64,000 nt of DNA from Candidatus Dormiibacterota bacterium (GTDB lineage Bacteria > Chloroflexota > Dormibacteria > Aeolococcales > Aeolococcaceae), in contig CAVPXI010000023.1 of the NCBI GenBank assembly GCA_963709585.1, forward strand, positions 128,001-192,000, written 5' to 3'. The translations under genes were made by a program, and so were the position numbers. Each line of letters starts with the position of its first letter. The first letter of the stretch is position 1. Below, in pieces: positions 34,726 to 44,219 of this stretch. The notes below the pieces were generated by a model, which worked only from the letters and a program-made list of their open reading frames with translations, was not told where the DNA came from and did not search any database.

Positions 34726-35172
34726 GTGAACAGCGCGATGGGAACCGTTTCGGAGATCCGGCTGCCGGCTGATCGCGAGCACATCCTCGTCGCCAAGCGG
34801 GCCGCGGGAGCGTTCGGGTCGCTCGCCGGGTTCGACATGGACGCGATCGACGACCTCACGATCGCCGTCGCTCAGGCCTGCGACAACGCCATCCGTTGCC
34901 TCGAGCACTCCGGTTCGATCGCCGGTCAGGTCCGCATCGTCTTCAAGATGAGCGACACCGGCCTCGAGGTCACGGTCCGAAGCACGGTCAATCGTGAGGC
35001 TGAGCTCAGAGCCCGCGCGGAGCAGGCCGGCTTCGGACGCGAGGGAGAGCTCGTCGCCGCAAGCGACCTGGCGCTCCGGCTCATGGGCCTCTTCGTCGAC
35101 GACAGCACGTACCGGGTCGATGAGCGAACTGGGAGCCTGCGCGTCCGGCTGACCAAATACAAGGCATCGTGA
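34726..35172 (+). CDS. RsbW/SpoIIAB-like anti-sigma factor with degenerate ATP-binding motifs
   Basis: IRLPA...GFDMDAIDDLTIAVAQACDNAI matches the HATPase_c-like fold. It overlaps the downstream sigma gene. Confidence 0.8.
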   Translation: MNSAMGTVSEIRLPADREHILVAKRAAGAFGSLAGFDMDAIDDLTIAVAQACDNAIRCLEHSGSIAGQVRIVFKMSDTGLEVTVRSTVNREAELRARAEQAGFGREGELVAASDLALRLMGLFVDDSTYRVDERTGSLRVRLTKYKAS

Positions 35173-35987
35173 CCCCCGCGCCGGGGCGCGGCGAGGGTGT
35201 GGCGACCCGCGAGCGAACCATCGCGAAGCCGGCAGAGACGGCGGAGCGGGCCGAGATGCGGCGCCTGCTCCGCGAGTTCAACAAGACCCGAGATCCACGG
35301 ATCCGGGAGCGGCTCGTCGAGCTCAACAGCGACCTCGTCCATTACATCGCGCGCCGTTTCGCCAATCGCGGCGAACCCCTCGAGGACATCGAGCAGGTCG
35401 GATTTCTCGGCCTCATCCAGGCGATCGAGCGATTCGATCCGTCCCTCGAGAACGAGTTCAGCACCTTTGCGACACCGACCATCGCGGGCGAGATCCGGCG
35501 TCACTTCCGCGACCGCTCCTGGGCTGTCAGGGTCCCTCGCCGTCTCCAGGAGAACCTCGCCAAGGTGAATGCCGCAACCCAGCAGCTCCAGAACGAGCTG
35601 GGCAGGTCGCCGTCGGTCGCAGAGATCGGGGCGCGGGTCGGGCTCGACCCCGACCAGGTCCTCGCCGCGATGGAAGTCGCGCCGGCCCAGCACACCATCT
35701 CCCTGGACGGCCCGGTCGGCGGCGGCGACGAGCCGCTCACCCTCGGCGACCGCCTCGGACTCTCGGACGACAACCTCGAACGCGTCGAGATGCAGGAGGT
35801 CCTCGAGCAGGTGATGGCGCACCTCACGCCGCGCGAGCGCAAGATTCTCGCGCTGCGCTTCGTCGAGCAATTGCCGCAGACCGAGGTCGCAAAACGACTC
35901 GGCATTTCGCAAATGCACGTCTCACGATTGCAGCGCGCGGCAGTCGAGCACCTTCGCAAGGAGTTCGGGTCCGAGGCGCCCGTGTAG
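35169..35987 (+). CDS. SigB/SigF/SigG family RNA polymerase sigma factor
   Basis: IARRFANRGEPLEDIEQVG, FSTFATPTIAGEIRRHFRD..WAVRVPRRLQE and region 4 QTEVAKRLGISQMHVSRL. Confidence 0.93.
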   Translation: MTPAPGRGEGVATRERTIAKPAETAERAEMRRLLREFNKTRDPRIRERLVELNSDLVHYIARRFANRGEPLEDIEQVGFLGLIQAIERFDPSLENEFSTFATPTIAGEIRRHFRDRSWAVRVPRRLQENLAKVNAATQQLQNELGRSPSVAEIGARVGLDPDQVLAAMEVAPAQHTISLDGPVGGGDEPLTLGDRLGLSDDNLERVEMQEVLEQVMAHLTPRERKILALRFVEQLPQTEVAKRLGISQMHVSRLQRAAVEHLRKEFGSEAPV

Positions 35988-35988
35988 A

Positions 35989-36016
35989 ATTCGACAAGTT
36001 GCTGTCGAATACTTTT
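35989..36016 (+). terminator. Hairpin after the sigma gene (possible terminator or regulatory stem before alaS)
   Basis: An 8-bp stem ATTCGACA/TGTCGAAT is followed by ACTTTT. Confidence 0.4.
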
Positions 36017-36020
36017 GCAC

Positions 36021-38627
36021 GTGCTCAGCTCTGAGATCCGGGAGCGATTTCTTCGCTTCTTCGAGGAGCGCGGGCATTACCGGCTCGCGAGCTTTCCGCT
36101 CATTCCCCACGACGATCCGTCGCTCCTCTTCACTGTGGCCGGAATGGTGCCGCTCAAGCCCTGGATCACCGGTCAGCGCACGCCACCGTCACGCGACCTC
36201 GTCTCCTGTCAGAAATGCTTTCGGGGCGCGGGCCTCAAGTACGACGACATGGCCTCCGTTGGTGACCCCACGCACCACACGTTTTTCGAGATGCTCGGCA
36301 ACTGGTCGATCGGTCATTACTTCAAAGAGGGCGCTATCGATTACGCGTGGGAGTTCTCCACCGAGGTCCTCGGTCTCGACCCCGCCCGGCTCTGGCCGAG
36401 CATCTACCCCGGCGACACCGAGTTGGAGCGCCTCTGGGTCGAGAAGATCGGCGTGCCCAGGGAGCGCATCTCGCGGCTGACCGAGAACTGGTGGGCGGCC
36501 GGGCCGACCGGTCCGTGCGGGTATGACAGCGAGCTCTACTTCGACTGGGGCGGCCCATGCTCATGCGGGCGGAGCGACTGCACGCCCCAGGACGAATGCG
36601 GCGGCGATCGCTTCGAGGAGTACTGGAACCTCGTGTTCATGGAGTTCGACCAGCAGCCCGACGGGTCACGGCCGCTGCTGCCCAATCCGACGGTCGACAC
36701 CGGGCTCGGCTTCGACCGGATCGTGGCGATCGTGCAGGGCGACCGCACCGGGTACGGCACCGATCACTTCGCCCCGATGGTCGACGGCTTCAGGTCTCGC
36801 GCAGCCGGCGCGGGCTCCGACCCGGCCTTGGTGCGGTCCTTCTACGTTCTCGCCGACCACCTTCGCGGAGCCGGTTTCCTGATCGCGGCGGGCGTGCTCC
36901 CGGCAAATGAGGGTCGTGGCTACGTGCTCCGCCGGCTGATCCGCCGTGCCGCCGTGCACGCGCGTCGTGTGGGGCTGCGGGGCGGCCTCGCGGCCGGCAC
37001 CGCCGACCTCGTCGGCGTCATGGGCCCGGTCTACCCGGAGCTCGTCGAGTTCCGCGGACTGATCGAGTTGACGCTGCGCATCGAGGAGGAGGCGTTCGCC
37101 CGAACCCTGGACGCCGGCACCGAACGGCTGGCGGGGCTGCTGTCGAGAAATCCGACCGGGATCGATGGCGCTGACGCATTCCGTCTCTATGACACCTTCG
37201 GGCTCCCGATCGAGTTAACGATCGAGATGGCAGCGGAGCGAGGGGCGACCGTCGATCTCGAAGGATTCGAATCGGCGATGCGCGAGCAGCGAGAGCGCGG
37301 GCAGGCGTCAGCGCGCCGTGTCGGCTTCGCGGGGGCCGACACCCTGCCGCCGACCCAGTTCATCGGCTACGACTCCCTGGAAACCGATACCACCGTGGTT
37401 CGCATCGGACTCGACAGCGAGACGCAGGTTCTCGGCGCCGGGGAGAGCGGCCCGGTGCTGCTCGACGTGTCGCCCTTCTACGCGGAAGCCGGCGGCCAGG
37501 TCGGCGATACCGGGACGCTCACGTGGCCCGGCGGGAGCGCACTCGTGCGCGACACGCAGCCGGTCGCCGGCAGCGATGCCCGCGCCCACGATGTGCTCGT
37601 GCAGGCCGGGGAGCTCCGTCCGGGGCAGCAGGTCCGCGCAGCGGTCGACGCCTACCGGCGAGGCCGGATCGCGCGTCATCACAGTGCGACCCACCTGCTC
37701 AATCGCGCGCTTCGCGAGGTCCTCGGCGACGCGGTGGTGCAGCGGGGCGCGTTCGTCGGACCGGACCACACGACCTTCGATTTTGCCTTCTCGAGGGCGC
37801 TCACCCCGGAGGAACTGGCCGACATCGAGCACCGCGTCAACGACGGTATCCGGCGCAACCTGGAGCGGACGGTCGCGCTCATGCCGCTCGCGGATGCGCG
37901 CGCAAGCGGAGCGATCGCGCTGATCGATGAGGCGTACTCGCCGGACGTCCGCGTGGTCGACTTCGGGGGATGGTCGCGCGAGCTGTGCGGCGGCACCCAT
38001 GTCACCCGCAGCGGCGACCTCGGCGCGGCGATCATCGTCTCCGAGAGCAGCATCGGCCAGGGCATCAGGCGCATCGAGATGGTTGCCGGGGAGAGCGCCG
38101 AGGAGCGCTGGCGGCGCACCGGCGCGGCGCTCCAGGCGACCGCACGCGCACTGAAGACGCGTCCGGAGGAGGTCCCGGAGCGGGTGGCCGCACTCCAGGA
38201 CCAGGTCCGCAAGCTCACTCGCGAGGTCACCCAGGCTCGCCAGGCCGGCCCCTCGAGCGTGCCGACCGACGCCGCGGTGGTCGAGGATGCCGGAGGCGTC
38301 CCCTTCGCTCACCTCCTGCTCGACGGCGACGTCGACGCCGACGGTGTCTCCGAGGCCGGCGACCGCCTCCTGGCCGACCGGCTCCAGGGTGATGGCGTCG
38401 CTGCTGTGCTCGGCCCAGCCACGCTCGTGGTCAAAGTCGGTGGACGCGCCCTTCAGGCAGGCATCCACGCGGGCACGCTGGTGACCGGCGCCGCCGAGAT
38501 CACCGGCGGCAGGGGCGGTGGACGCCCGGATCTCGGCCGGGGCAAGGTCGGCGATCCGGCCAAACGCGAGGCAGCCGTCTCCCTGCTGCGCAACGCCATC
38601 ACCGAGACGGTGGGGCACGCCGCCTGA
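36021..38627 (+). CDS. alaS: Alanine--tRNA ligase
   Basis: Motifs DPSLLFTVAGM, HHTFFEMLGNWS, GPTGPCG, editing HHSATH and ELCGGTH, and C-Ala GRGGG. Confidence 0.97.
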   Translation: MLSSEIRERFLRFFEERGHYRLASFPLIPHDDPSLLFTVAGMVPLKPWITGQRTPPSRDLVSCQKCFRGAGLKYDDMASVGDPTHHTFFEMLGNWSIGHYFKEGAIDYAWEFSTEVLGLDPARLWPSIYPGDTELERLWVEKIGVPRERISRLTENWWAAGPTGPCGYDSELYFDWGGPCSCGRSDCTPQDECGGDRFEEYWNLVFMEFDQQPDGSRPLLPNPTVDTGLGFDRIVAIVQGDRTGYGTDHFAPMVDGFRSRAAGAGSDPALVRSFYVLADHLRGAGFLIAAGVLPANEGRGYVLRRLIRRAAVHARRVGLRGGLAAGTADLVGVMGPVYPELVEFRGLIELTLRIEEEAFARTLDAGTERLAGLLSRNPTGIDGADAFRLYDTFGLPIELTIEMAAERGATVDLEGFESAMREQRERGQASARRVGFAGADTLPPTQFIGYDSLETDTTVVRIGLDSETQVLGAGESGPVLLDVSPFYAEAGGQVGDTGTLTWPGGSALVRDTQPVAGSDARAHDVLVQAGELRPGQQVRAAVDAYRRGRIARHHSATHLLNRALREVLGDAVVQRGAFVGPDHTTFDFAFSRALTPEELADIEHRVNDGIRRNLERTVALMPLADARASGAIALIDEAYSPDVRVVDFGGWSRELCGGTHVTRSGDLGAAIIVSESSIGQGIRRIEMVAGESAEERWRRTGAALQATARALKTRPEEVPERVAALQDQVRKLTREVTQARQAGPSSVPTDAAVVEDAGGVPFAHLLLDGDVDADGVSEAGDRLLADRLQGDGVAAVLGPATLVVKVGGRALQAGIHAGTLVTGAAEITGGRGGGRPDLGRGKVGDPAKREAAVSLLRNAITETVGHAA

Positions 38628-39892
38628 TGCCCAAGCGAAAGTTCGCGCTCCTCAAGCGGCGCGAGGAGTTCCAGAGCCACTACACCGTGCTCGACATCGG
38701 CACCGAATTCGTCAAGGCGTTGATCGTCAAGCGGGAGAACGACAAGGGCATCGTCCTCGGGGTCGGCAAGGTCCGTCAGGCGCAGACGCACATGCAGGCG
38801 GGCGCGGTCGCCGACCTCCAGGCGGTCATCGACAACTGCGACCGCGCACTGACCGAAGCCGAGGACATGTGCGAGACGATCCCCGGTCAGGCGGTCATCG
38901 GCATCGCCGGCGAGCAGGTGCGCGGCTTCAGCACGACCATGACCGTGCCGAGGCCGCAGCCACAGGCGCGTATCACCCAAGCAGATCTCGCCACCGCGTT
39001 GCAGGCCGTGCAGCGACGGGCGCTCCGGGAAGCGGTCCGCCAGATGTCCCACGATCTCGGCGTCCAGGAGGTCAACGTCAAGCTGGTCCACAGCACGATC
39101 ACCTCGGTGCGCATCGACGGCTACGCGGTCAGCAATCCTGTGGACTTCCAGGGGCACGTCGTCGAGATCACCGTGTTCAACACCTTCGCTCCGCTCACCC
39201 ACATCGGGGCGCTGCAGGCGATCGCTCAGGAGCTGGACCTCGAGCTCGTGGCCACGGTCGCCGAGCCGTACGCCCTGGCACGCGGCTGCGCGTCCGCCGA
39301 GTTCCACGAGCTGGGCGCCATCTTCGTTGACGTCGGCGGCGGGACCACGGACATCGCCGTGGTCCGGCGCGGCGGCATCGAAGCGACCCGGATGTTCGCC
39401 CTCGGAGGACGGTCGTTCACCAAGCGACTCGCCACAGATCTCTCGATGGACCTCGACGAGGCGGAGCGATTCAAGGTCGCGCACGCCGAGGGCCACCTTG
39501 CCGCCGAGCAGAGCGCCATGGCCCGCCGAGCCCTGACCCCGACTGCCGAGGTCCTCGCCCAGGGCGTCGCGCTGACCCTCGAGGAGCTCGCCGGACCGGA
39601 CCCGCTGCCGGGGTCGATCTGCCTTGCCGGTGGCGGCGCGGCGCTGCCCGAGGTCGCCGAGCAGCTTCGCATCCTCGACTGGTCGGACACGGTGCCGTTC
39701 ACCCGCCCGCCGACGGTCAAGGTCCTCGGTCCGAGTGACGTCACCGGCGTGTACGACACGACCGGGCTCCTGGTCGGCAGTCAGGACGTCACCCCGATGG
39801 GGCTTGCGCGACACGCCGTGACGCTGGAAGATGACGCGGACGAGCCCCTGGGCGGGCTCATGCGCCGCGTTTTGAAGACGATGAAGGTATAG
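38627..39892 (+). CDS. Orphan FtsA-like actin-fold ATPase
   Basis: Phosphate-1 VLDIGTEFVK, phosphate-2 VDVGGGTTD and adenosine LAGGGAALP. It has an FtsA-type 1C/SHS2-like insert (IDGYAVSNPVDFQG) and an amphipathic C-terminus LGGLMRRVLKTMKV. Confidence 0.85.
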   Translation: MPKRKFALLKRREEFQSHYTVLDIGTEFVKALIVKRENDKGIVLGVGKVRQAQTHMQAGAVADLQAVIDNCDRALTEAEDMCETIPGQAVIGIAGEQVRGFSTTMTVPRPQPQARITQADLATALQAVQRRALREAVRQMSHDLGVQEVNVKLVHSTITSVRIDGYAVSNPVDFQGHVVEITVFNTFAPLTHIGALQAIAQELDLELVATVAEPYALARGCASAEFHELGAIFVDVGGGTTDIAVVRRGGIEATRMFALGGRSFTKRLATDLSMDLDEAERFKVAHAEGHLAAEQSAMARRALTPTAEVLAQGVALTLEELAGPDPLPGSICLAGGGAALPEVAEQLRILDWSDTVPFTRPPTVKVLGPSDVTGVYDTTGLLVGSQDVTPMGLARHAVTLEDDADEPLGGLMRRVLKTMKV

Positions 39893-39898
39893 GCGCCG

Positions 39899-41616
39899 AT
39901 GCCGGCTGTTGTCATTGCCAGGGCGGACGATGAGATCGTCGATCTCATCGATCGAGTTCGCTCGTCCGCAGACCCGGATGTGGGCCTGGTCGTGCCCACC
40001 TCCAGCCGTGCCTTGCAGACCCCGCTGAACGTCCGGCTGCTCGCCCAGTTCAGCCACCAATCGGGCCGGCGCACTTCGATCGTGACCGAGGATCCGCGCG
40101 TCCAGCAGCTCGCGCGCGCCAACGGGCTTCAGGTCTACGGATCCGTCCCGGCCTACGAGCGGGGCATCGAACTGGGCGGCCCGCGGGTGAGCGCGGGCCT
40201 GGGGCGAGGCCTCGCCGGTGCCGGTGCAGGTGGTATGGCTGCCGCCGCGGTGCTTGAGCCGCCTCCCTTGCCGCCGCCGGCGCCACCGCCCGTCGGTCCG
40301 CCCGCACAGGCGACGGCACGGCTCGAGCCGCGGCGGGTCATCACCCAGCTCCGCCGGCGCGACCCCCTCGCGGATGGGACCGGCGTCGCTTCCTCTATGT
40401 CGCAGGTGCTGCGGTCGCGATCATCGGCATCGTGCTGTTCATGGCCCTTGCCCCGTCGGCAAGGATCACCATCACGATCGCCGCGACGCCGCTCTCAGTC
40501 AACTCGACCATTCAGGGGAGTACCAGTGCCACCTCGGCCACCCTGCCCGATCACGTGCTCACCGGCGTGGTCACGGCCACGAGGAACCAGCAGTTTCAGG
40601 CAACTCCGACCGGAACCACGACAGTTCCGGCGGTGGCGGCGAAGGTCATCCTCCTGTTCTCGACCGATTCGCCCACCGACATCGGGTTCAACCTGCCGCC
40701 GAACAGCACCAGCTCGTATGTCCAGACCGCTGACCAATCCAGCACGTTCGCGCCCACCCGGAACACGTTCATCTGCATCGGTCCGGTCAATCCGCCGCCA
40801 GCCGGAGCCTGCGCGGGGCACTCCTACAATGCGACGGCGCCGTACGCCGACCAGACGGCGGGGGCGAATGGGAATGTGGCCACCGGTAGCCTGACATCCT
40901 GGCAGGGCGATCCCTGCCCGGACCCCATCCAGTGCCCGGGGACCCACATCAGCGTGACCAACGACAGCGGCGCCTCAGGCGGGTCCGATTCCAAACAGGT
41001 CACCGCGGCGAGCGCGACCGACGTTGCCAACTGGACGGCCCAGGTGACCCAGATCATGGGTGCGCTGACCGCGCAGCTCCAGACCGACCTCCAGGCGAAG
41101 GCGGCAGGCAAGGTATTCGCCAAGGATCCGACCGGCGGCGGGGCGCTCACGTCCTACTCCCAGAGCCCGACGAAGCTCCCGGCAGCCGGCGCGCCTTTCA
41201 CGGCGACCACAATCAGCGTATCCGCCGCAGCTGAAGCGGCCATCTACGACCCGATCGCTGTCCGCAACGACGTCATCGCCGACCTCGACAAGCTGGTCAA
41301 GCCCGGCGACCAGCTGGCTCCCGGCAAGCTGACCACGCCGCCATGCGCGGTGACCCAGGCAAATACCAACGGCACGGTGATTCTCGCCTGCTCGGCGACC
41401 GACTTCAGCCAGCCCACCGTCAACCTGAACACCCTGAAGGCGCAGCTCACCGGGCGGAACCCGGGGAACGCGCAGAGCATCGTCGAGCGCAACATCGCCA
41501 AGGTCCAGAACGTCCATGTCTCCGAATCGCCCTTCCAGCTCTTCTATCTGCCGCTGCGCGCATCGCAGATCGCGATCGACGAGAACTTCGTCGTCACCTC
41601 GATCAAGTCGCCGTGA
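39899..41616 (+). CDS. Bitopic membrane protein with an extracytoplasmic baseplate-J/gp47-like region, frameshifted near 40350
   Basis: The N-terminal domain and Pro-rich linker lie in one frame. TM FLYVAGAAVAIIGIVLFMAL and the T/S-rich outer part (GANGNVATGSL...VTNDSGASGGSD) lie in the adjacent frame. Adding one base joins them into about 572 aa. Confidence 0.7.
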
Positions 41617-42074
41617 CCTCGGCCGGGGACAGTTCCGGTCGCACGCGCGTCCTCGGGATCGACGTCGGCTCGGTGCGGATCGGGATCGCCGTCTCCGACG
41701 AGACGTGCATCCTCGCGTCGCCCGTCGCCACCATCGCCAACGACCCTCGGACCCTGTGGACACGCATCGCGCGTGAGATCGAAGATCGCCAGGTGGAACG
41801 AGTGGTGATCGGGTTGCCTCGCCGCCTCGACGGCAGCGAGGGCGACGCAGCCGAGAACGCGCGGACATTCGCGGCCGAGCTCGGGCGACGCACGTCGGCG
41901 GCGATCGAGCTGTGGGACGAACGGTTCACCACGACCATCGCCGAGCGATCGCTCATCGAAAGTGGCGTGCGCAGAAAGCGGCGGCGCGAGGTGATCGACT
42001 CGGTGGCCGCGGCAGTGCTGCTGCAGAGCTGGATCGACGCACGCCGGATCGCCGCGGCGCGCGCCGCGCGGTGA
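41613..42074 (+). CDS. ruvX: YqgF/RuvX family pre-16S rRNA nuclease
   Basis: Motifs VLGIDVGSVRIGIAVSD, VVIGLP, WDERFTT and IDSVAAAVLLQ. Confidence 0.95.
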   Translation: MTSAGDSSGRTRVLGIDVGSVRIGIAVSDETCILASPVATIANDPRTLWTRIAREIEDRQVERVVIGLPRRLDGSEGDAAENARTFAAELGRRTSAAIELWDERFTTTIAERSLIESGVRRKRRREVIDSVAAAVLLQSWIDARRIAAARAAR

Positions 42075-42907
42075 GCACGCTGCCGCTGCGGCTGTGCCTC
42101 GTCGGCGCCGGGATCGCCCGCTCGCCGAGCCCGGTCATCCACCAGGCTGCGATGCAGTCCTCGGGTGTCGAGGGCACCTACGTGCTTCGCGACCTTGTAC
42201 CCGATGACATCGAAGGCTTCGTCGCGGAGTTACGCAAGGGACGCTACACCGGGTGCAACGTCACCGCCCCCTACAAGGGCGTGATGGCAGCGCGATGCGA
42301 CCGCCTCGAAGGTGACGCCGAGTCGCTCGGGGTCGTGAACACGATCACCGTTCGTGGAGGACGCCTGGTCGGCGTCACCACCGATGCCGACGGCTTCGAG
42401 CTCGCCCTGAGCCTGGGGTCGATGTGGCCGCGTCAGGGGGCGACAGCGCTCGTGCTCGGGGCGGGTGGCGCGGCCGCCGCGGTCGCGCTGGCGCTCACCC
42501 GGGTACCGCTCCTTCGTCTTCGCATCGCGGCTCGGCGGGAGGTCTCCGCCGGCGCGCTCGCCGACCGGCTTCGCGGCTCCGGCGATATCGCGACCGTGCC
42601 ATGGGATCGCGACGCCATCGCCGCGACCTGTGCGCATTCTTCGATCGTCATCAACGCGACGCCGGCGGGGTTGGACGCGCTCCCATTCGACCCGCGAGCC
42701 ATCCCCGCCGCGTGCACCGTCGTCGACCTGCGCTACGGCCCGCGCCCCGTGGACGTCGTTGCCGCGGCGCTCGAAACCGGACACCGAGCGAGCGACGGCC
42801 TCGAGATGCTCCTGCAGCAGGGATTGTTGAGCTTTGAGATCTGGACCGGAATGGTCGCGCCTGTGGCCGCGGTGCGCAACGCGCTGCACCGGGCAGTCGA
42901 GGCGTGA
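42071..42907 (+). CDS. aroE: Shikimate dehydrogenase
   Basis: Motifs SPSPVIH, GCNVTAPYK, VNTI, TTDADGF, LGAGGAA and DGLEMLLQQG. Confidence 0.92.
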   Translation: MSTLPLRLCLVGAGIARSPSPVIHQAAMQSSGVEGTYVLRDLVPDDIEGFVAELRKGRYTGCNVTAPYKGVMAARCDRLEGDAESLGVVNTITVRGGRLVGVTTDADGFELALSLGSMWPRQGATALVLGAGGAAAAVALALTRVPLLRLRIAARREVSAGALADRLRGSGDIATVPWDRDAIAATCAHSSIVINATPAGLDALPFDPRAIPAACTVVDLRYGPRPVDVVAAALETGHRASDGLEMLLQQGLLSFEIWTGMVAPVAAVRNALHRAVEA

Positions 42908-43659
42908 ATGCTCCGCTGGTCATCGCCGGGGTCACGGTCGCCGGCGGTCTGGTCGGGCTGGGATCCGGCTGGCTCGCGGTCGCGCTGGAGAAGGTCGAGA
43001 AGCTCGAGGAGGAGGAACGCCAGGAGCGCCTCGAGTACGAACGGGATGTCGCCGAGGAGCTGACCAGGGCCGCAGCAGCGGGGGAGGAGCCGGCGGCAGC
43101 TCGCCCGTGGGTCGGCGAACGTTATGGCTGGACCTGGCTGGAACGCTGGCTCTCTCCGGCGCTCGGAGCGATCGGCTTCGGCGCTTTCGCCGCGCACGAG
43201 GATTTCGGATCCGAACTGCTCATCCACGTGCTCTGGATCGCGATCTTCGTGCACGTGGTCGACTTCGACCTCAAGCACAAGCTCATCCTCAACGTGATCA
43301 CCTACCCGAGCATCCTGGCCGCGCTGGTGCTGAGCACATGGTCGCCGGGGCTGACCCTGACCAGCGCGATCATCGGCGCCGTCGGGGTGGCGGCCTTCTT
43401 CTTCGTGCAGAACCTGGTGTCGAGAGGGAGCATCGGACTAGGCGACGCGAAGCTCGGTGCGCTGGTGGGCGCGGTGTCCGGCGCGGGTCCGACTTCGACC
43501 CACCTGGGCGCGGTCTACGCCGTGGTCGCGGGGGTGTTCATCGGCGGCGCGACCGCGCTGGTTCTTTTGGTCACTCGCGTTCGCGGGCTCAAAGACCCGA
43601 TACCCTATGGTCCGTTCCTCTGTGCGGGCGCAGCGCTCATCCTGTACCTCGGTCCTTGA
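42904..43659 (+). CDS. A24 family prepilin peptidase without the N-terminal Zn/Cys domain
   Basis: Catalytic-type Asp motifs VDFDLKHK and IGLGDAKL, C-terminal IPYGPFLC, and multiple TMs. Confidence 0.85.
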   Translation: MNAPLVIAGVTVAGGLVGLGSGWLAVALEKVEKLEEEERQERLEYERDVAEELTRAAAAGEEPAAARPWVGERYGWTWLERWLSPALGAIGFGAFAAHEDFGSELLIHVLWIAIFVHVVDFDLKHKLILNVITYPSILAALVLSTWSPGLTLTSAIIGAVGVAAFFFVQNLVSRGSIGLGDAKLGALVGAVSGAGPTSTHLGAVYAVVAGVFIGGATALVLLVTRVRGLKDPIPYGPFLCAGAALILYLGP

Positions 43660-43694
43660 CCCGCACCAGTCCAGGGGTTCGATGAGGTGAGGCA

Positions 43695-44219
43695 ATGCCG
43701 ACGCAGCTGATGCCGGGCGAGCGGTCGATCGCGCTGGTCCGCCAGCACTGGTCGGTGCTCGCCGGTCACGTGCTGGGAGCGATCGTGGTGATCGTCGTGG
43801 CGATCATCCTGAACGCGAAGCTGCCGTCGACGGTCGGCTCGGTCTCGATCACCACCGTGAAGACGGTCGTCGTGCTCGTCCTGGTGATCGGGTCGCTGCT
43901 CTGGGCGGGCATTCGAATCCTGCGCTGGCGCTTCGCCACGTATCACCTCACCGACCGGCGGATCGTCATGGAGGGCGGGGTCCTCTCGAGGACCGCGGAG
44001 ACGATTCCACTCGACCGGATCCAGAACACGGTGATCCACCGGCCGCTCGGCGACCGCCTGATCGGCGCCGGGGACATCGAGATCGAGTCCGCGGGGCGGG
44101 ATGGCGTGGAGGTGCTCCACCGTATCCCCAAAGCCGAGACGTTCTACAACGAACTGCTCGCCACTATGAATGCGCCGCCCACTTCCGCGGGAGGGCCACC
44201 GCGCCCCACCGGTCTCTGA
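43695..44219 (+). CDS. Bacterial PH-domain (bPH_2/YdbS-like) membrane protein
   Basis: Two TMs followed by YHLTDRRIVMEGGVLSR..IPLDRIQN...GDIEIESAG. Confidence 0.85.
   Translation: MPTQLMPGERSIALVRQHWSVLAGHVLGAIVVIVVAIILNAKLPSTVGSVSITTVKTVVVLVLVIGSLLWAGIRILRWRFATYHLTDRRIVMEGGVLSRTAETIPLDRIQNTVIHRPLGDRLIGAGDIEIESAGRDGVEVLHRIPKAETFYNELLATMNAPPTSAGGPPRPTGL

Follow-up and report, generated by a model that had tools for sequence, protein, structure and literature searches.

FtsA with FtsN and MreB with RodZ are the described combinations of an actin-family protein and a membrane-spanning partner that come closest to the locus reported here. The 1C region of FtsA binds FtsN, which carries a short cytoplasmic peptide and a SPOR domain, and the cytoplasmic domain of RodZ is a helix-turn-helix. 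The PASTA kinases (PknB/PrkC/StkP) join a cytoplasmic kinase, via a transmembrane (TM) helix, to a wall-binding ectodomain. The locus in question lies in a 64,000-nucleotide stretch (the window) of contig CAVPXI010000023.1 from a Candidatus Dormiibacterota bacterium (assembly GCA_963709585.1, genome G000), where two adjacent genes between alaS and ruvX code for an FtsA-family actin-fold ATPase paralogue (gene 1) and a bitopic membrane protein (gene 2). Cell shape in filamentous cyanobacteria is affected by a further bacterial actin-like protein, FcmB of the FcmB–FcmC system, which depends on a partner at the membrane and is reported to derive from plasmid-partition actins (PMC12645912).

Gene 1 shares with FtsA the actin fold and its ATP motifs, can be aligned with it through the 1C region and ends in an amphipathic tail as FtsA does, and gene 2, like FtsN, is a single-pass partner with a cytoplasmic N-terminus. 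Gene 1 differs, however, in falling under the FtsA cut-off, forming a separate clade, being unlinked to ftsZ and coexisting with a canonical FtsA, whereas gene 2 differs from FtsN in its folded 90-residue cytoplasmic domain and its baseplate-like ectodomain. The analogy with MreB/RodZ would lie in the combination of a membrane actin-family protein with a bitopic protein that has a small folded cytoplasmic domain, and in low-GC relatives the pair genes are linked to mltG, mreB, mreC and pbp2; nevertheless, gene 1 is FtsA-like rather than MreB-like, MreB coexists with the pair in many loci, and the N-domain of gene 2 is alpha/beta, not helix-turn-helix. Residues 243–371 of gene 2 superpose on the barrel domain of Baseplate J/gp47/gp6 (PF04865) with Z scores of 9–12 (root-mean-square deviation, rmsd, 2.2–3.0), but gene 2 is membrane-anchored, predicted to be exported and equipped with a cytoplasmic domain, and it sits in a housekeeping block without tail genes: no tail or contractile-injection cluster was found around it, the neighbours being alaS, ruvX, mltG, aroE and mreBC-pbp2. 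The kinase–TM–ectodomain layout of the PASTA-type Hanks kinases recurs in gene-2 paralogues of five Chloroflexota genomes, although the gene-2 ectodomain is unrelated to PASTA and gene 2 itself has no kinase domain. FcmB–FcmC differs in that gene 1 is sister to FtsA, and the partners are unrelated. Full-text literature searches returned no description of the gene 1–gene 2 pair; the words 'FtsA' and 'baseplate' are absent from the main text of PMC10633639, whose supplementary Tn-seq tables may bear on essentiality.

The likeliest explanation, to which we give even odds, is that the pair forms one envelope-spanning module acting in cell-wall growth or morphogenesis, a reading that draws on the anatomy of the two proteins, their adjacency and nested occurrence, their links to mltG, mreBC-pbp2 and bacA, their absence from MltG-less lineages and the fusion of the gene-2 ectodomain to kinases. 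In this picture gene 1, an actin homologue of the FtsA family, would bind ATP and be anchored to the inner face of the membrane by its C-terminal amphipathic helix; it may polymerize and would serve as the cytoplasmic partner of gene 2, the two presumably binding each other. For gene 2 the proposed role is that of a single-pass adaptor or sensor, with its STAS-like domain held in the cytoplasm on a long flexible linker and its ectodomain contacting the wall (probably peptidoglycan or its synthesis machinery, with wall material as the putative ligand). Such an arrangement could be likened to that of FtsA with FtsN, or of MreB with RodZ.

Gene 1, an FtsA-family paralogue apart from canonical FtsA

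Gene 1 matches the Pfam FtsA family (PF14450) at 53.1 bits, over the cut-off of 31.8, with weaker matches to PilM, MreB and EutA (PilM_2, 35.1 bits) and an SHS2_FTSA score of 15.4 bits that lies under the cut-off of that model. It does not reach the FtsA equivalog TIGR01174 (106.8–108.3 bits vs a cut-off of 175.85), nor those for pilM (TIGR01175, 34 bits vs 133) and mreB (TIGR00904, 27.9 bits vs 365.75). Its closest relative in the PDB is FtsA (7q6g, E = 3.5e-12), with entry 7q6i also among the matches. Both the TIGR01174 model (positions 3–261) and the structure (gene-1 residues 22–287 against residues 13–262 of 7q6g) align contiguously through the 1C region. The DIGT, DVGGGTTD and GGGA motifs are invariant across 12 gene-1 orthologues, in which the basic-hydrophobic C-terminal tail (PLGGLMRRVLKTMKV) is also conserved; with a hydrophobic moment of 0.57 over its last 14 residues (rank 13 of 407 windows), the tail is amphipathic and is predicted to be an FtsA-like membrane-targeting helix. 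The original prediction, which had credited gene 1 with all the actin-fold ATP motifs, an FtsA-type 1C-like insert and a C-terminal amphipathic helix, is thus upheld on each point.

The same prediction had asked whether the genome holds a separate ftsA and where gene 1 falls in a tree. Genome G000 encodes a canonical FtsA (400.9 bits) beside ftsZ on another contig, C4, which rules out gene 1 as its only FtsA. When the FtsA model was applied to five other Chloroflexota genomes, the scores fell into three tiers, with canonical FtsA at 349–424 bits, the alaS-locus copy at 100–107 bits and shorter actin-like proteins at 26–64 bits. A maximum-likelihood tree of 26 rows gave the same picture: it unites the 13 copies from alaS loci in a single clade (98/98), sister to the six canonical FtsA proteins (97/96), and the seven shorter actin-like proteins stand apart from both. 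Gene 1 is therefore a distinct FtsA-family paralogue. In a sample of 201 Chloroflexota genomes, for which lists of presence were compared by eye, canonical FtsA exceeded its cut-off in 193. The counts from this sample take in three unpublished genomes (G173, G038 and G145), the first of which also supplied tree locus L008; dropping the three would not change any conclusion.

Between Chloroflexota classes, gene 1 is 44–50% identical, vs 42–46% for FtsA over the same genome pairs, and against a Patescibacteria-like copy gene 1 retains 46% identity, alaS 34% and gene 2 22%. Judged by these identities, the constraint on gene 1 equals or exceeds that on FtsA, and purifying selection on it is strong. 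The only names that public records give to members of the pair are 'cell division FtsA domain-containing protein' and 'hypothetical protein'; the label 'cell division protein FtsA' that many gene-1 orthologues bear is probably misleading.

Conservation of the pair and anatomy of gene 2

The order alaS–gene 1–gene 2–ruvX(–mltG) is conserved in Dormibacteria (ranked as a class of Chloroflexota in the genome collection used), in other Chloroflexota and on low-GC contigs resembling Patescibacteria. Among the Chloroflexota loci fetched with gene 2, all 11 from Dormibacteria read gene 1–gene 2–ruvX, and the 12 from other classes comprise six with both genes, five that read alaS–gene 2–ruvX without gene 1 and one that is rearranged. 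Conversely, gene 2 lies directly downstream in 76 of 80 named loci fetched with gene 1, and three of the four misses are at contig ends within 170 nt of gene 1. A set of 80 metagenome loci fetched with the low-GC branch of the gene-2 family has gene 1 directly upstream of gene 2 in 66 of the 68 that are informative; on one of these contigs (L140) the close relatives of gene 1 are named from Patescibacteria and Berkelbacteria, and relatives in the Atlas belong to Saccharimonadota, Minisyncoccota and Uhriibacteriota. The pair is also nested in its occurrence, as gene 1 (called at E ≤ 1e-50) is found in 61 of the 201 genomes, all of them within the at least 138 that have gene 2, a count that is a floor owing to a stricter first look in that search. 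The statement in the original prediction that similar pairs occur in Chloroflexota and CPR genomes was therefore sound, and conservation of the pair, which it had asked to be surveyed, extends across all three groups.

The structure of gene 2 was modeled on a 574-residue homologue, P0121 (94% identical), using 20 homologues, with a mean predicted local distance difference test score (pLDDT) of 76.9 and values over 90 across most of the ectodomain. The model comprises an alpha/beta N-domain (residues 1–90), a disordered Gly/Ala/Pro linker (94–163), one TM helix (164–185) and 389 residues outside the membrane, of which 189–545 form the well-predicted stretch; it agrees with the topology deduced beforehand (a cytoplasmic N-domain, a Gly/Pro linker, one TM helix and about 390 residues outside). 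Six cysteines of the ectodomain are conserved, and R147, in the juxtamembrane stretch on the cytoplasmic side, is invariant. In one alaS locus of a larger Chloroflexota genome (L217, G111:C1:307000-318500), gene 2 reaches 893 residues and carries an acidic disordered linker of about 400 residues between the N-domain and the TM helix.

Neither Pfam nor NCBIfam matched the gene-2 pieces in the window, and Baseplate_J (PF04865) gave no Pfam match to those pieces or to five intact homologues from Dormibacteria. A Foldseek search of the PDB with the ectodomain returned six baseplate chains (E = 2.5e-6 to 6e-4), among them 8kea_d (E = 2.5e-6), 9gb2_G and 9ki1_H (the Mu baseplate), and 32 BFVD entries, most of them called baseplate J, matched at E ≤ 0.001. 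VIA alignments with wedge proteins gave Z = 9.4–12.3, with core residues 243–371 superposing at an rmsd of 2.2–3.0 over 92–102 residues and longer alignments extending to residue 570; the barrel of Streptomyces GlxA (5lxz) also matches, at Z = 9.1. The gene-2 family profile recovers 2853 representative clusters at E ≤ 0.001, and among 21 distant members of the family seven pass the Baseplate_J cut-off, three pass that for the GlxA barrel and five have no match. On the predicted model, then, the ectodomain core is the baseplate-J/gp47 wedge barrel fold. The earlier description of gene 2 as 'baseplate-J-like' accordingly stands by fold and by the Pfam matches of seven of the 21 distant relatives, but not by any Pfam match of this protein itself. 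The N-domain modeled alone (pLDDT 93.3) has as its top folds STAS, anti-sigma antagonist and SLC26 STAS domains (Z = 6.5–8.0 over 86–88 residues), with no Pfam match, no PDB sequence match and no Foldseek match at E ≤ 0.001.

Large Chloroflexota genomes carry several extra copies of the ectodomain. In 15 extra paralogues from five genomes (G111, G075, G030, G147 and G129), ten are built of a Hanks Ser/Thr kinase domain at the N-terminus followed by a single TM helix and an ectodomain of the gene-2 type, and at least four of the other five have the same STAS-like N-domain as gene 2. Because it is fused either to Hanks kinases or to STAS-like N-domains, the ectodomain is, to judge from these architectures, a portable outside module joined to different cytoplasmic outputs; by analogy with the PASTA kinases, the kinase fusions argue for a wall-sensing or wall-binding role. 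The kinase–ectodomain paralogues also occur in tandem arrays (L216, at G111:C1:2332000-2351000, and L219, L220, L221 and L222).

Wall-related context and competing explanations

In most relatives ruvX and mltG follow the pair, and the context is related to the wall. Low-GC loci have ruvX next downstream in 49 of 58 and mltG downstream in 45 of 58, with MreB (21) and pbp2 (17) downstream among the 39 loci informative for them; contig L140 reads SLT-alaS-...-gene1-gene2-ruvX-mltG-mreB-mreC-pbp2-greA, and genome G111 reads alaS-gene1-gene2-ruvX-mltG-bacA (undecaprenyl-diphosphatase). MltG is present in 56 of 61 Dormibacteria, usually right after ruvX in the same locus, and the 62 informative Dormibacteria loci read ruvX-mltG-aroE in 44 cases and cleanly lack mltG in 18 (window 42040-42110; L048-L127), 17 of which are close kin of the window (gene 1 ≥97% identical); the loss of mltG is lineage-specific. 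Across the 201 genomes, MltG was found in 178, and gene 2 in 137 of those; the 23 that lack MltG include a single carrier of gene 2, G000. Since it co-occurs with MltG in this manner, usually in the same locus, gene 2 was rejected as a substitute for MltG.

The absence of a recognizable mltG at the window locus, stated in the original prediction, was corroborated: aroE follows ruvX directly, and searches of G000 (88.8% complete) and of G230, a genome of the same genus, turned up no YceG domain. Likewise, no ftsZ, ftsQ, mur, mreCD or pilN gene adjoins the pair within the window. The term 'orphan' that had been applied to the FtsA-like ATPase calls for correction: most relatives continue after the pair with ruvX-mltG and, in the low-GC loci, often with mreB-mreC-pbp2. 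As these genes lie downstream in relatives, the context of the pair points to wall growth, and of the roles first proposed (division, shape or surface attachment) it favors wall growth more than surface attachment; the actin filament and the exported scaffold or ring proposed along with those roles are hypothetical.

Several observations weigh against a wall-growth module. Gene 2 occurs without gene 1 in 77 of the 138 Chloroflexota genomes that have it and still retains its N-domain there, so the N-domain cannot exist only to bind gene 1. The Z scores of that domain (6.5–8.0) are in a range common among unrelated alpha/beta domains, and neither a catalytic nor a known ligand-binding motif was seen in the ectodomain. 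The neighborhood and co-occurrence counts all draw on related genomes, whose data points are not independent, and the MltG-less genomes represent a few small-genome lineages. Finally, the genus of the window retains the pair without MltG, canonical MreB, RodZ_C or PBP2, and the module is therefore not dependent on those partners: a search of G000 gave no RodZ_C and no PBP2 over the cut-off (the best PBP2-like match being in the dcw region of contig C4), and its only MreB-like gene (C14:408353-409318, L212), beside murA, scores 192–212 bits, under the cut-offs.

Other functions can be envisaged for the two genes. Gene 1 might be a divisome accessory that acts at the septum as an additional FtsA, bound to FtsZ or to canonical FtsA, with gene 2 as a late bitopic protein like FtsN or FtsQ/DivIB; its nearest family is FtsA by every measure, the 1C region included, and its tail resembles the membrane-targeting tail of FtsA. 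We consider this unlikely, however, as gene 1 is never beside ftsZ or dcw genes in the loci examined, the canonical ftsA–ftsZ is retained in 193 of the 201 genomes, and the conserved neighbors (mltG and mreB-mreC-pbp2) belong to elongation. Also unlikely is a signaling device in which gene 2 would monitor the state of the wall and relay it via the STAS-like domain, by RsbW-like/sigma partner switching or by Hanks phosphorylation, with gene 1 as a regulated target or scaffold. The top folds of the N-domain (anti-sigma antagonists, RsbS and STAS) suggest such a device, as do a Ser/Thr at residue 41 in 15 of 17 diverse N-domains, which may correspond to the phospho-serine of SpoIIAA/RsbV, the fusion of the same ectodomain to Ser/Thr kinases, and the rsbW-like and sigma-factor genes that lie upstream of alaS without a STAS gene between them. 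Yet the STAS match is weak (Z under 8, with no Pfam or PDB sequence match), and the rsbW-like gene, upstream of alaS in 49 of 53 Dormibacteria loci, is there in none of the 32 low-GC loci with the pair; this linkage therefore cannot explain the module as a whole.

The remaining alternatives place the pair outside both wall growth and signaling. A platform for a surface structure or for anchoring surface proteins, whether PilM/PilN-like, GspL-like or a sortase scaffold, would accord with a weak PilM_2 match in gene 1, with the single membrane span of gene 2, reminiscent of PilN or GspL, and with a prepilin-peptidase-family gene that lies downstream, but gene 1 scores far from the pilM equivalog (34 bits vs the cut-off of 133), and no pilN/O/P/Q, secretin or sortase gene stands beside the pair in the annotated loci; we regard it as very unlikely. 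Nor did a fusion of actin-fold and baseplate-like domains turn up among 268 proteins of the gene-2 family or among the top Atlas clusters. Even though the only clear fold relatives of the ectodomain are wedge proteins of phage or contractile-injection baseplates, it is extremely unlikely that gene 2 is a domesticated or decaying phage remnant, or a defense gene, without a core cellular role: the pair has a fixed place in a housekeeping block across phyla, no other phage genes lie nearby in the window or the annotated loci, gene 2 has a TM anchor and a cytoplasmic domain and belongs to a family of 2853 representative clusters, and gene 1 appears to be under strong purifying selection.

The wall-growth module may be extended to a bolder proposal, which we put forward as a doubtful though possible one: that Chloroflexota and Patescibacteria possess a third actin-family cytoskeletal system beside FtsA and MreB, in which a membrane FtsA-like polymer would act through a bitopic coupler, and an exapted phage wedge domain would grip or sense peptidoglycan and so steer wall synthesis, the same wedge domain having been recruited as the sensor of Ser/Thr kinases. 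If this were true, many uncultured soil bacteria and ultra-small Patescibacteria would organize the growth of their walls by an actin-like protein together with a membrane adaptor unknown in model organisms, adding a new branch to the FtsA/MreB story and a clear example of a structural domain of phages converted to a component of the cellular envelope. A family of Ser/Thr kinases would gain a candidate sensor domain, and there would be testable candidates for the poorly understood cell biology of two groups, Chloroflexota and Patescibacteria, that make up a large share of bacterial diversity.

Layout of the locus, the reading frame of gene 2 and flanking genes

The features of the locus are collected in Table 1. 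The TGA stop codon of alaS (38625-38627) shares one base with the ATG of gene 1 (38627-38629), as TGATG; 6 nt lie between the stop of gene 1 (39892) and the ATG of gene 2 (39899); and the gene-2 stop overlaps the GTG of ruvX as GTGA (41613-41616), an overlap that recurs, likewise as GTGA, between ruvX and aroE. The tight packing of two genes between alaS and ruvX was thus correctly described at the outset. The G+C content of the window is 64–72%.

Table 1 Features of the alaS–ruvX region, in window coordinates
Feature	Coordinates	Strand	Basis or remark
alaS (alanine-tRNA ligase)	36015..38627	+	Pfam tRNA-synt_2c, 505.8 bits; flanks the conserved block on its upstream side
Gene 1, FtsA-family actin-fold ATPase paralogue, 421 aa	38627..39892	+	PF14450 and TIGR01174 matches; tree
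Gene 2, bitopic membrane protein, ~574 aa with the frames joined	39899..41616	+	Two frames in the window
Gene 2, cytoplasmic N-domain, residues 1-90, alpha/beta	39899..40168	+	Predicted model; STAS-like fold
Gene 2, missing-base site (frameshift)	40350..40351	+	Relative L048; runs X1 and X15
Gene 2, transmembrane helix (FLYVAGAAVAIIGIVLFMALAP)	40390..40455	+	Helix 164-185 in the P0121 model; frame B
Gene 2, ectodomain	40456..41613	+	Core residues 243-371 (~40618-41004), baseplate-J/gp47 wedge barrel fold on the predicted model
ruvX (YqgF)	41613..42074	+	PF03652, 145.4 bits; downstream anchor
aroE	42071..42907	+	Shikimate_dh_N, 73.2 bits; directly after ruvX, the usual mltG place vacant

Gene 2 is split over two frames in the window. 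Its intact homologues have 565–601 residues, and comparison with a 95%-identical relative that has an intact 575-residue open reading frame locates one absent base between 40350 and 40351, where the window reads CAGCT-CCGCC and the relative (L048) reads CAGCTGCCGCC. Contigs of two public runs restore the base that had been suspected to be missing: in run X1 (a contig of 1199 nt with five other differences) a G follows 40350 at a depth of 12.7 of 12.7, and in run X15 it does so at a depth of 3.1 of 3.1. The ftsZ gene of G000 (C4:257447-258387; L004-L006) is also broken: its three pieces do not share a frame, and one contains an internal TGA, a pattern that suggests single-base assembly errors in this genome. 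With the G present in the contigs of both runs and ftsZ split too, the break in gene 2 is most probably an assembly error, and the gene was taken as intact; for the same reasons (the missing G being held by contigs of a near-identical strain) a real pseudogene is unlikely. Run X15 is an RNA library, whose contigs on the locus show 90–99% likeness; they are possibly derived from DNA and were not taken as expression.

Upstream of alaS, the window contains a gene for an RsbW/SpoIIAB-like anti-sigma kinase (34726-35172) and, directly before alaS, one for a sigma factor of the sigma-70 family (SigB/F-like, 35169-35987); no gene for a STAS antagonist lies between the two in the window. On the other side, 1.3 kb downstream of the pair, is the gene of the prepilin-peptidase family (type IV leader peptidase, A24; 42904-43659), which together with a gene for a bacterial PH-domain membrane protein fills the interval between aroE and aroC (42904-44219). 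A shikimate cluster of actinobacteria has an arrangement resembling this order of aroE, A24 peptidase and PH-domain genes, and the latter two are probably unrelated to the pair.

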